DNA from: a virus
Lineage: Duplodnaviria; Heunggongvirae; Uroviricota; Caudoviricetes
Direction: 5' to 3' (one strand)
Virus record (IMG/VR): IMGVR_UViG_642979322_000006
Length of the DNA: 9,106 nt
The position numbers and the translations under genes are program-made. Shown in pieces: positions 257 through 6,134 of the stretch. The notes beneath the pieces were generated by a model. It saw only the letters and a program-made list of their open reading frames with translations. It searched no databases and was not told the DNA's origin. Each line of letters opens with the position of its first letter. Positions within the stretch are counted from its first letter, which is position 1.

Positions 257-294
257 TTTTCCGGTTAAACGTTAATCAGGCTGGTGGGCTTTAC
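257..294. repeat. 38-bp perfect direct repeat, copy 1 (TTTTCCGGTTAAACGTTAATCAGGCTGGTGGGCTTTAC)
   Basis: Identical to 617-654. Copy 1 is preceded by an inverted repeat TTAACCG (245-251) / CGGTTAA (262-268). Confidence 0.9.
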
Positions 295-374
295 CTGTTC
301 GGTAGGTGTTATGATTATCGTAATACCCGTTAAAGGGGCCGAATACATCACCGGATTTAGGGGATGTTCCCTGC

Positions 375-413
375 CTCCTCAAATTGAGGATTGTGGAAGA
401 ATCAATGGGTTAG
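375..413. repeat. Imperfect internal repeat X1 (CTCCTCAAATTGAGG ... ATCAATGGGTTAG)
   Basis: Matches 483-521 in two conserved blocks (15 nt and 13 nt) around an 11-nt variable linker. Offset is exactly 108 bp. Contains a short hairpin CCTCA-AAT-TGAGG. Confidence 0.8.
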
Positions 414-482
414 TCTTACTTTCCCAACATCCCCCAATGGGGGTTTTCGAAACAATCAATAGCTTAGGCTTACTTCCCCGAT

Positions 483-521
483 CTCCTCAAATTGAGGTTG
501 CCGGAAATATCAATGGGTTAG
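483..521. repeat. Imperfect internal repeat X2
   Basis: Second copy of the 375-413 motif. Confidence 0.8.
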
Positions 522-575
522 GCCATAGTGCAATTTTGCACTCTGAAACAATATCAACCAGTTACCGCCGCATCC

Positions 576-597
576 CGATATGGGAATCCCCATATCG
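576..597. repeat. Hairpin H1 (9-bp stem CGATATGGG / CCCATATCG, 4-nt loop)
   Basis: Inverted repeat read directly. A related hairpin with similar flanks occurs at 692-717. Confidence 0.75.
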
Positions 598-616
598 AGA
601 TTGGATACCTGGCTTT

Positions 617-654
617 TTTTCCGGTTAAACGTTAATCAGGCTGGTGGGCTTTAC
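617..654. repeat. 38-bp perfect direct repeat, copy 2
   Basis: Identical to 257-294. Confidence 0.9.
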
Positions 655-2927: not shown

Positions 2928-3179
2928 TTATTCTCCAGCGCTTTTAACGTTGATGGTTGTTACCTGTTCCGCTTCGGCAATCTCCCGTTCTGTCAGCGTG
3001 GCAAAGTTTGCAGCTGCCGTTGTCATGAATGCGCTTATCAGTTCGGGATTCTCCTTCGCGTATCCTTCCCGTGTGTGGCGGTCGATGATTTTTATCGCCA
3101 CCCTCAGCCAGTGCTCTGTAAGGTCAATGGCGCGGTTATGTGGTTTCTTCTGATTGTTCAATTTTCCTGATGTGTGCAT
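2928..3179 (-). CDS. Hypothetical protein (83 aa)
   Basis: ORF from track, ATG at 3179, followed by the terminator. Only a weak, distant SD (GAGGGT about 12 nt upstream). Preferred over the overlapping plus-strand ORFs 2875..3153 and 2910..3170 on operon context and protein-like composition. Confidence 0.5.
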   Translation of the reverse strand: MHTSGKLNNQKKPHNRAIDLTEHWLRVAIKIIDRHTREGYAKENPELISAFMTTAAANFATLTEREIAEAEQVTTINVKSAGE

Positions 3180-3227
3180 TTTTATTTTTACCCTCGTGTT
3201 TAAAAAGTTTTAGGTTGTGGTGCACCT

Positions 3228-3452
3228 CCTCTACCTCTCTACCCAATCATCTTTCAGGTCAGTAATGGCGCGGCTTTCAGATGGGTAGAGGGCTTTCGTG
3301 GCCCTCTACCCATCCTCTACCCGCCCCTCACAAACGACCTTAATCATGGTGGAGGGTGTAGAGGGCTTTTATTTGCCTTCTACCTGCCCCTCTACCCACT
3401 TATCATATTGAATAATGTATATTTATTTTCTTTAGGTAGAAGAGGTAGAGGG
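3228..3452. repeat. Iteron array: putative replication origin
   Basis: About 10 copies of CTCTACC / GGTAGAG (extended GGGTAGAGGGCTTT) in both orientations: direct at 3229-3235, 3237-3243, 3304-3310, 3315-3321, 3378-3384 (1 mismatch), 3390-3396; inverted at 3284-3290, 3357-3363 (1 mismatch), 3435-3441 (1 mismatch), 3444-3450. AT-rich stretch at 3401-3434. Immediately 3' of the primase/helicase gene. Confidence 0.7.
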
Positions 3453-3465
3453 CTTTTGTCTAAAA

Positions 3466-5220
3466 TTATAAAAACGCGTCGCAATCATCAGTTGTAATTG
3501 CGTTGGTCTGCGTTACTCCCTTAACTCTCCGCGTAATATATTCATGTCCGTAAACTTTTGCCGCTGGCTTCATGGCCTTGCTGAACTCAGCCACGTTTAG
3601 CGGCTTGCTTCTTCCTGCGTATGCCATAAACGCCAGATAGACGCGGTAAAGGCTGTTTCTGGTCGTGTACTTCACGGAATCGCCACCGCCACCCATCATC
3701 AGGCCGCGTGCTTCCTCCAGAAAATTCAGGAACTGGCAAAACTCAATAACCGGATCTGTCTGTTGCTTTATCGCCAGTGCTTCATCACCATCGCGCTGTT
3801 CCAGGAGTAAAGCCCGTGCCTTTTCAGGGTCGGCAAAATTAGCCAGCAAGCGGCGGATAATTACGGGGATTTCTGCCGCTATCTTTTCCGGTAATTCCTT
3901 GTCTTTTTCGTCCTCCCTTACAATGTTGTCGAACCGGAAAATCACCCGACGGCGTGACACACCTCCGGCCCGCTCGGTGAATATCATCGGGTTGTTGTTG
4001 GTCGCCAGTACCACCGCCCTTATTACCGTCGTGAATCGCTTCTCATATTTCGGGTTAATTTCGACGGGGTCGCCGCCCGTGATTTTCTTGATGCCCGTTC
4101 CTTCGCCTGTATATTTCGGTTGGTCAGCCAGGACGATAAGACGACTCCCGACAACCTGCGCACGTCCACCAGCATCATCAAGCGATGTCATTTCAGCGCT
4201 TACCGTGTTCTGTTTCCCTGCCAGAAGGCTGGCTATGTGCGTGAATGTACTTTTACCGCTACCGCCGTCTCCGGTGGCCTCAATAAACATCTGCCAGTCG
4301 TACCGGTTCGCCATAATCATGTACAGCGCGGCACATATACGCATCATCTTGCGCGGGTCTTTTCCGGCTGCGTGATCAAGCCATTTGTGAAAGTTTGGCG
4401 CGTTGTCGCGAATGTTCTCCCCAGGTGCTGGTGGCGTGTACTCAATGCCGTTGTGCGTGGTGATCCAGTTCTCCGGCGTGTGCGGGGAAAATTCCCCCGT
4501 TTTCAGGTCAAGCGCACCATTGGCGAACGGCAGCAAATCGCCGGACGGCTCCCCCATTGGTTCGGCAATAACTTTTAACGCTTCAACGGCGTTATTGATC
4601 ACGCGTTTGCTGAAAGTGGCCCTGTGCTCTGAATAGATCGCCACCATTTCGCGGCTAAGTTCCATTGTGCTGACCGGACACCATAACCCGCAGCGCCATA
4701 CGTGAACGATTTCACTTTCAGGATGTACGCAAACGCCATCAAAGCGATCGGAAAGCAGCTGAGCGCGTTCACTGTCCGCCATCTGCGAAAGTTGCGCCTT
4801 TTGCTTTACCGGAAGCTCAACGACCAGACCTTCAGAAAGATTCTGGCGCTCACGGGCAAGATATTCGCGCCAGTTCTCCACCTTCTGACCGTGCATTCCT
4901 TCGGGGTAAAAATTTGCATCCTGTACACCTGCCGCCGCCAGCTTCTGACCAATCGCCTTTATCATTACTGGCGCAAGATATCCGGCCCTGAATATGCGTA
5001 CTGATTTTCGGCCTTCCGGCACAATTTGCAGCTTATCCAGTTCGGATAACTGCTGATCCCCAAGCCACACAGGAGGCTCATTATCTCTGGCTATACGCGC
5101 GTCATGTTCCTGCCACTGTTTTGCATGTGCCCACGCATCACTACCCGCGAAAATAATTACCTCTGTGTCTTTGTGTTTTATTCCGCGTGGTTGTTTTTTT
5201 AAGTTCGGTGCGCTTTTCAT
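3466..5220 (-). CDS. Replication primase/helicase, P4-alpha-like (primase domain plus SF3/D5-type NTPase)
   Basis: 584-aa ORF. Walker A GDGGSGKST (around plus 4240-4270) and Walker B-like RLIVLAD. GAGG 6 nt upstream of ATG 5220. Start overlaps the upstream gene's stop as ATGA. Confidence 0.9.
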   Translation of the reverse strand: MKSAPNLKKQPRGIKHKDTEVIIFAGSDAWAHAKQWQEHDARIARDNEPPVWLGDQQLSELDKLQIVPEGRKSVRIFRAGYLAPVMIKAIGQKLAAAGVQDANFYPEGMHGQKVENWREYLARERQNLSEGLVVELPVKQKAQLSQMADSERAQLLSDRFDGVCVHPESEIVHVWRCGLWCPVSTMELSREMVAIYSEHRATFSKRVINNAVEALKVIAEPMGEPSGDLLPFANGALDLKTGEFSPHTPENWITTHNGIEYTPPAPGENIRDNAPNFHKWLDHAAGKDPRKMMRICAALYMIMANRYDWQMFIEATGDGGSGKSTFTHIASLLAGKQNTVSAEMTSLDDAGGRAQVVGSRLIVLADQPKYTGEGTGIKKITGGDPVEINPKYEKRFTTVIRAVVLATNNNPMIFTERAGGVSRRRVIFRFDNIVREDEKDKELPEKIAAEIPVIIRRLLANFADPEKARALLLEQRDGDEALAIKQQTDPVIEFCQFLNFLEEARGLMMGGGGDSVKYTTRNSLYRVYLAFMAYAGRSKPLNVAEFSKAMKPAAKVYGHEYITRRVKGVTQTNAITTDDCDAFL

Positions 5221-5948: not shown

Positions 5949-6134
5949 TTACTCCTCATCCTGAATACATGTCACTGTGTGGATAATTACGCCGGATAAA
6001 CCGGCTTTAGCTGATTTGTTAATTACTGTGCTGATTGCAGCCTGGACGTTTTCGGCCTTCACGTTCTGCGTGATGCCAACGGTATAGCCGCGCTTGTTAA
6101 CAGCACGGGAAAAAACGCGGAAGGTTTTAAGCAC
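5949..6134 (-). CDS. Hypothetical protein (61 aa), GTG start
   Basis: ORF from track; start codon is GTG (plus 6132-6134 CAC), no internal Met. Overlaps the upstream ORF by 8 nt. Coding status uncertain. Confidence 0.4.
   Translation of the reverse strand: MLKTFRVFSRAVNKRGYTVGITQNVKAENVQAAISTVINKSAKAGLSGVIIHTVTCIQDEE

Follow-up and report, generated by a model that had tools for sequence, protein, structure and literature searches.

The repeat array and its genomic setting

The DNA analysed here is a stretch of 9106 bp (the window), which is found in identical form over its whole length in E. coli O157:H7 chromosomes. In O157:H7 strain 6535NalR, the island of approximately 9.2 kb to which it belongs is flanked by clpS and cspD, and the att core ATGATAGTTAT occurs as a direct repeat at both island ends, 9.2 kb apart in the genome; a second copy lies beyond int in locus L001. 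For two PICIs at cspD-clpS, EcCIIHE3034 and EcCI18098, the published att core is this 11-bp sequence (PMC6092414, Table S1), and the attachment site is described as exclusive to PICIs and not used by prophages (PMC6092414). The gene order is integrase, a 257-aa protein, an AlpA-like regulator (phrog_2790, 74 aa), an Icd-like protein, a DUF4222 protein, a 584-aa protein annotated as 'DNA primase family protein', the repeat array described below, three small proteins, the small terminase and a capsid-like protein. Nearly all annotated island genes lie on the same strand; a small YlcI/YnfO gene runs the other way. The features of Gram-negative PICIs, namely int, an AlpA-type regulator, near-unidirectional genes and the att core between cspD and clpS, were all found. 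Because the published att core flanks the island as a direct repeat, the element was assigned to a known PICI site; it is a PICI-type satellite at the published EcCIIHE3034 site.

Several repeats were observed elsewhere in the window. Two families of 12-nt repeats, GTAACTTTTTCG (3.2 copies) and GTGTAACTTTTC (1.9 copies), are located at 2079-2117 and 2331-2353, inside or just upstream of the small terminase gene, and are candidates for the pac site. Near the att core, at a distance of about 75-140 bp, ATTAACTACACC and CACGAACAAGATCGAACAAC are each present as a tandem pair (174-197 and 202-239), and they are probably arm-type sites of the integrase; the reverse complement of ATTAACTACACC is given as the 'att core' of EcCIDI14 (PMC6092414, Table S1). 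The region between the capsid-like gene and the att end (250-720) is rich in repeats: palindromes occur at 572-601 and 686-716, a 38-nt sequence is found at 253-290 and again as a direct repeat at 617-654, and a 54-bp unit is present in 2.8 tandem copies at 374-523. The IHF consensus is matched exactly four times on the stretch with the 54-bp repeat (at 400, 454, 508 and 552), compared with 0.9 expected in the whole window. A mechanically called ORF of 114 aa (284-628, plus strand), not annotated in RefSeq, overlaps this stretch.

The array is located in the intergenic region 3180-3465, between the 584-aa ORF and an 83-aa ORF, both of which lie on the minus strand (Table 1). Counted on both strands, the heptamer CTCTACC occurs in seven perfect copies in the window, all within 3229-3450, compared with an expected number of 0.46; none of 200 dinucleotide-preserving shuffles reached seven copies. 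With at most one mismatch, CCTCTACC was matched at 11 sites in 3228-3451 and at only two sites in the rest of the window. All nine perfect copies of the hexamer TCTACC in the window lie inside the array, and two of the 11 array sites are degenerate (CCTCCACC and CCTCTACA). The first-pass annotation had described about ten copies in both orientations, in agreement with the 11 sites counted here on both strands; the eight copies it took to be perfect have to be corrected to seven perfect heptamers or nine perfect hexamers. The array starts 14 bp 3' of the initiator stop codon (3466-3468), with the first repeat ending at 3451, which bears out the earlier remark that it lies right after the initiator gene as in SaPI/PICI-type elements. 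No other cluster of this repeat was found in 18.5 kb of genomic context.

Table 1. Position of the array, the initiator gene and associated features in the window
Feature	Position	Strand	Remark
att core ATGATAGTTAT	92-102	minus	clpS-side island end; exact match to published EcCIIHE3034 att core
First gene downstream of the putative origin, 83 aa, phrog_1231	2928..3179	minus	function not assigned
Iteron 11, CCTCTACC	3228..3235	plus	module B, distal doublet
Iteron 10, TCTCTACC	3236..3243	plus	module B, distal doublet
Conserved non-iteron block CAGTAATGGCGCGGCTTTCAG	3261..3281		nearly invariant in 41 aligned origins
Iteron 9, CCTCTACC	3284..3291	minus	module B
Iteron 8, CCTCTACC	3303..3310	plus	module B
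Iteron 7, CCTCTACC	3314..3321	plus	module B
Iteron 6, CCTCCACC	3348..3355	minus	degenerate
Iteron 5, CCTCTACA	3357..3364	minus	degenerate
Iteron 4, CTTCTACC	3377..3384	plus	position peculiar to this allele group
Iteron 3, CCTCTACC	3389..3396	plus	inverted relative to iterons 1 and 2
AT-rich tract, 34 bp	3400..3433		88% A+T; predicted DNA-unwinding element
Iteron 2, CTTCTACC	3435..3442	minus	module A
Iteron 1, CCTCTACC	3444..3451	minus	module A, gene-proximal doublet
Initiator gene Pri-Rep, 584 aa	3466..5220	minus	D5_N, SF3 helicase P-loop domain (DUF5906), C-terminal winged helix
Terminator-like hairpin and T run	3480..3502	minus	consensus scan; 8 pairs, 3 G-C; weak; overlaps last initiator codons
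Predicted origin-binding winged-helix domain, residues 488-576	3493..3759	minus	phmmer match to 1KA8, E 6e-6
N-terminal TOPRIM-like domain, residues 1-135	4816..5220	minus	catalytic motifs absent

The 34-bp AT-rich stretch that had been noted before was recovered inside the array. In a nearest-neighbour calculation across the window, duplex stability was lowest in the 40-bp segment that begins at 3399 (-40.8 kcal/mol; mean -55.2, sd 4.5). The tract is flanked by opposed doublets of repeats, on the minus strand at 3435 and 3444 and on the plus strand at 3377 and 3389. A promoter scan gave no sigma-70-like promoter in the array region, and the array contains no match to the IHF consensus and no perfect DnaA box; two DnaA sites with one mismatch at the array edges correspond to chance frequency. 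The sole perfect DnaA box of the window, TTATCCACA, is located far away at 5978-5986 (minus strand), among small genes upstream of the DUF4222 gene. In P4, a terminator is annotated after alpha at the place matching the hairpin at 3480-3502. An Rfam search of 3000-3700 returned only sub-threshold hits to plant miRNA precursors, which arise because inverted repeats surround the AT-rich tract, and these were rejected as chance matches.

The ORF of the 584-aa protein is intact, with no internal stops. Pfam searches assigned D5_N (1.8e-13) and DUF5906 (3.5e-10), and the Pox_D5 C-terminal domain scored 21.0 bits, just below the cut-off of 21.4 bits. Residues 190-442 match SaPI5 PriRep (PDB 7OLA, E 2.3e-14), and the C-terminus is homologous to 1KA8, the solved origin-binding winged-helix domain of P4 alpha. 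Residues 1-135 gave no sequence match in Pfam or PDB. The TOPRIM Glu and DxD motifs are missing from the protein, which has IIFAGSD and IFRAGY instead, and the zinc finger is missing as well; a full zinc finger and TOPRIM domain are present in P4 alpha and in the Morganella relative L004 (794 aa). Judged by these motifs, the 'primase' domain at the N-terminus appears to be a TOPRIM remnant without activity. Hence, of the label 'primase/helicase' given at first pass, the second half is supported by the SF3 helicase domains, whereas the first is doubtful since the TOPRIM catalytic motifs are absent, and 'primase' is probably a misnomer for this allele.

EcCICFT073 and the wider family of initiator loci

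The nearest origin for which experimental data are available is that of EcCICFT073. When its rep gene and putative ori were cloned in a temperature-sensitive plasmid, colonies were obtained at the restrictive temperature (Fillol-Salom et al. 2018, ISME J, PMC6092414); the rep mutant gave 0 colonies and deletion of ori gave significantly fewer colonies (PMC6092414). The Pri-Rep protein of EcCICFT073 is 95.5% identical to the window initiator, and the binding domains are 96% identical with four substitutions. In the 290 bp after pri-rep of EcCICFT073, 11 TCTACC sites are present at offsets of 17, 26, 72, 94, 105, 114, 145, 156, 178, 224 and 233 from the stop codon, and the sites in the window follow at 17, 26, 70, 82, 104, 113, 145, 156, 177, 223 and 231. 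EcCIIHE3034, with an initiator of 89% identity, has 10 perfect sites in an array that matches closely. Compared with EcCICFT073, the flanking genes have 85-100% DNA identity and the origin only 55-77%, with the repeat cores kept; the 83-aa protein downstream of the array is 86% identical to an 85-aa protein at the matching place. Because both the orthologous initiator and the array match those of EcCICFT073, the array in the window represents an allelic variant of an experimentally supported origin, and as a close variant of the EcCICFT073 origin it is largely ordinary.

Counting against a reading of the array as an origin are the two degenerate sites among the 11 and the replacement of one of the three direct repeats by an inverted one. 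Since these changes are seen relative to both EcCICFT073 and P4, the array could be the intact-looking but inactive origin of a decaying O157:H7 island. The island is small, its late region is reduced in comparison with EcCIIHE3034 and EcCICFT073, and many database fragments carry deleted or fused versions of the initiator gene; the island may be partly decayed. The initiator ORF, however, is undamaged and closely matches a functional orthologue, nine perfect cores are left, and both doublets beside the AT-rich tract are intact. Moreover, several distinct loci share the allele type with C before TCTACC and repeats at offsets 70 and 82, which speaks for its maintenance. An inactive relic is therefore considered very unlikely.

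In all, 86 loci encoding relatives of the initiator were compared. Their diversity came via IMG/VR: a set of genomes from 185,579 species, searched with a single protein, yielded only 3 loci, and the first homologue search returned near-identical proteins only. An array of like kind follows the initiator stop codon in all 86 loci. The repeat word is TCTACC in 67 of them, TGTTCA in 12 and GTATAC in 7, with a layout common to all three, and an AT-rich tract was present at the matching place in the oriented loci inspected, which span all three iteron classes. The non-iteron block CAGTAATGGCGCGGCTTTCAG was found in 43 of the 86 loci, including L072 of another iteron class. CATTACTG is also present inside P4 ori, and ten bases of the block (AATGGCGCGG) are repeated at 3126-3135 in the gene downstream of the array.

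To quantify conservation, 41 distinct origins of the TCTACC class, taken from IMG/VR, the genomes and the window, were aligned. Among the 66 core columns 71% are invariant with a mean entropy of 0.21 bit, and among the 196 other columns 18% are invariant with a mean entropy of 0.78 bit; the Mann-Whitney p of 3.6e-13 for this difference is indicative only, because alignment columns are not phylogenetically independent. Within and between arrays, and even under identical binding domains, TCTACC is preceded by different bases (C, G, A, T), and for this reason the hexamer TCTACC is regarded as the conserved core. The CTCTACC core proposed at first pass thus describes a real and enriched repeat, but its first base is not part of what relatives conserve. 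The idea that the preceding base (C versus G/A) forms a separate specificity tied to an AEFS/NDFG difference in the binding domain was also considered and found unsupported as a functional claim: mixed-base arrays occur under one domain, and the AEFS locus L008 has a G/A-type array. Since the two features are only 100-300 bp apart, linkage alone explains their association.

The repeat word changes together with the C-terminal domain of the initiator. Domains of the type SLYR(V/L)Y...AFM are found with TCTACC, the type YLYHAYL.YM with TGTTCA and the type YLYHAYLAFLE with TGTATACC; TGTTCA-type words occur in L003, L004, L006 and L072-L077. A pair with such a switch is L080 and L081. Identity between their initiators amounts to 98% for the body, 100% for the N-terminal domain and 89% for the binding domain, and their arrays carry GGTATACA (L080) and GGTGTTCAT (L081) at essentially all sites, with a few variant or hybrid sites. 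Candidate specificity residues are those at the Y-to-R and A-to-K changes in PPHYPRIYLYHAYLAF. In L080 and L081, recombination has exchanged a block that starts just before the binding domain and also takes in downstream genes, so that this pair alone cannot distinguish the initiator domain from a downstream protein as the binder. However, TGTTCA is common to P4, L003, L004 and L006 despite different neighbour genes, and TCTACC is common to EcCICFT073, EcCIIHE3034 and this island despite differing packaging genes; one word recurring with unrelated downstream genes indicates the initiator's own domain as the binder. The earlier suggestion that the iteron defines the specificity of the initiator is in keeping with a word that changes with the DNA-binding domain across relatives while the layout stays fixed. 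As a separate observation, the last iteron doublet of L078 and L084 forms hybrid arrays, with ATGAACACC beside ATGTATACC; these mark recombination between origins of different specificity.

The same data bear on an alternative in which the repeats serve the late genes as operators or as a packaging (pac/cos) site and are bound by a regulator or the small terminase. The array does lie between the replication gene and a downstream operon that includes terS, and the downstream genes of L080 and L081 change together with the repeats. Opposed to this are the lack of a sigma-70-like promoter in the region and the presence of TCTACC arrays in islands with different late genes; a terminase small subunit is annotated once each in EcCIIHE3034 and this island, but is unannotated in the EcCICFT073 record. 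In P4, Serratia, Morganella and IMG/VR loci the word follows the initiator domain type with unrelated genes downstream, and for a pac site the distinct 12-nt repeats located inside terS and upstream of it are the better candidates. The probability of an operator or packaging role is accordingly next to negligible. Seen together, the PICI att site, the P4-family SF3 initiator, the match with EcCICFT073 and the co-variation of word and domain support the satellite origin that had been called probable at first pass; judged from these sequence comparisons, 3228-3451 is very probably the vegetative replication origin of the approximately 9.2-kb PICI of E. coli O157:H7.

Repeat spacing in P4 and a proposed course of initiation

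The positions and orientations of the repeats were compared with those in P4, for which ori and crr were taken from the P4 GenBank annotation (Table 2). The spacing and orientation of P4 ori are found in the gene-proximal half of the array (module A, 3348-3451), and EcCICFT073 agrees with P4 ori at six of six positions. Relatives from Serratia, Morganella and phage vB_KppS-Ant match module A within a few bases, and in a multiple alignment the repeats are in register with P4, with part of the AT-rich tract also aligning. Counted from its own first site, module B has the offsets 0< 11< 32> 78< 86< in the window and 0< 11< 33> 79< 88< in EcCICFT073, in both cases close to the P4 crr unit. P4 alpha reportedly binds the type I repeats of both ori and crr (Ziegelin et al. 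1993, 1995; Yeo et al. 2002). By its spacing and the partial alignment, the array looks like a P4 ori unit joined to one P4 crr unit, a reading which goes beyond the published description. In L066-L069 and L072 (first 330 bp after the initiator gene), the crr-like module B comes first and module A, the half with the AT-rich tract, second; because the module order is reversed there, an origin built of two movable modules is suggested.

Table 2. Repeat layout given as offsets of repeat centres, counted from the first repeat along the reading direction of the initiator gene, with orientation marked by > or <
Element	Module A	Module B
This window	0> 9> [AT] 53< 65< 87> 96>	128< 139< 160> 206< 214<
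EcCICFT073	0> 9> [AT] 55< 77> 88> 97>	128< 139< 161> 207< 216<
P4 ori, alpha direction	0> 10> [AT] 55< 75> 86> 96>	n/a
P4 crr unit, own zero	n/a	0< 12> 30> 75< 84<

The likeness to crr raises the question of whether the array is only an auxiliary cis element, with the true start elsewhere in the island. In P4 it is crr, and not ori, that lies directly 3' of alpha, and the distal half of the array has the crr-like spacing. Yet neither the island nor its 18.5-kb genomic context contains a second TCTACC cluster, and in the proximal half the repeats are laid out as in P4 ori, AT-rich tract included, for which reasons a purely auxiliary role was judged to be extremely unlikely. It is also at odds with the maintenance of a plasmid by rep and the putative ori site of EcCICFT073 alone (PMC6092414). 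With regard to the function of crr, the P4 cosmid paper (PMC9942202) contained no usable statement.

With the array as the origin, the following course of initiation is proposed. Upon induction the island would produce the 584-aa Pri-Rep, whose C-terminal winged helix is expected, by analogy with SaPI Rep and P4 alpha, to bind the TCTACC hexamers. Because the doublets flanking the AT-rich tract point in opposite ways, they may position initiator hexamers face to face across 3400-3433. The tract would then melt, and the SF3 helicase ring could load itself there and unwind the DNA. The five repeats of module B (3228-3321), as the counterpart of P4 crr, probably hold extra initiator for assembly. 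Should the N-terminal domain be inactive, host DnaG is likely to do the priming.

A wider reading was formulated from these parts, in which the CFT073-type origin is a true homologue of the P4 replicon, with ori and crr units side by side, and not a separate SaPI-like invention; at least four words (TCTACC, TGTTCAC(C), TGTTCAT and TGTATACC) would have come about via exchange of a block of binding domain and origin, and the primase would have become a dead TOPRIM stub, so that host DnaG is needed. We lean slightly towards this joint reading.

Comparison with known replicons

What is added here to the known EcCICFT073 origin is modest and comprises the hexamer as core unit, the persistence of cores while spacers diverge, several specificity classes with natural switches, the P4 ori and crr layout and the degenerate TOPRIM domain. 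A text search of the literature gave no relevant paper on TCTACC as an iteron; the iteron-sequence figure of PMC6092414 was outside its coverage. The analysis assigns a probable function to a conspicuous non-coding stretch of an O157:H7 island, which would thereby carry both the cis and the trans parts of an autonomous replicon. Furthermore, the natural specificity switches (L080 versus L081; TCTACC versus TGTTCA) could be used to map the winged-helix residues that read the repeat. For annotation, short inverted repeats and an AT-rich tract right after a P4-family primase gene are proposed as a reliable marker of satellite origins.

SaPI origins are defined as being located immediately downstream of rep, with 6-12 short repeats and an AT-rich tract (Ubeda et al. 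2007, 2012; PMC9371898), and with at least two repeats on each side of the tract in opposite directions (PMC9371898). SaPI Rep, a hexameric SF3 helicase, binds its cognate iteron origin without ATP and is thought to load one hexamer per side of the AT-rich tract (PMC9371898). The array in the window has the published SaPI-origin layout: the PICI/SaPI range of six to twelve iterons of 5-8 nt includes its 11 sites with the core TCTACC, and the protein encoded next to it combines an SF3 helicase with a winged helix at the C-terminus. Like SaPI, the island thus has its putative origin 3' of rep and an SF3 initiator that is predicted to load itself. In contrast to SaPI, the host of this island is Gram-negative, repeats and spacers have no sequence similarity, the AT-rich tract is off-centre (2 repeats versus 9), and SaPI5 PriRep is related to the window initiator in the helicase core only (E 2e-14). 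The iteron plasmids of the RepA/pi/TrfA type have tandem direct iterons of 17-22 bp upstream of rep, and DnaA boxes; unlike these, the repeats in the window are 6-8 nt long, lie in both orientations and are located downstream of the gene.

The closest likeness is to EcCICFT073 and EcCIIHE3034, which share with the window the TCTACC core, the place directly 3' of pri-rep, near-equal offsets and the AT-rich tract between opposed doublets; EcCIIHE3034 also has the same att site as this island. The differences are the base before TCTACC (mostly C in the window, G or A in the two relatives), the direct repeat of EcCICFT073 at offset 77 from the first repeat that is replaced by an inverted repeat at offset 65, the two degenerate repeats of the window and a late gene set that is shorter than in both relatives.

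P4 resembles the window in the homologous helicase and C-terminal origin-binding domain of alpha and in the position of crr directly 3' of the initiator gene. It differs in its type I iteron, which is TGTTCACC where the window has TCTACC, and in the zinc finger and active TOPRIM primase of alpha, both absent from the window initiator; sid, delta and psu of P4 are absent from this island. In P4, ori and crr are approximately 4.5 kb apart, with crr duplicated and directly after alpha, whereas the island has a single cluster in which all repeats form one contiguous array. The match to P4 ori and crr links the two families of satellites through the arrangement of their origins and qualifies the published claim that this organisation is common to no other replicon.
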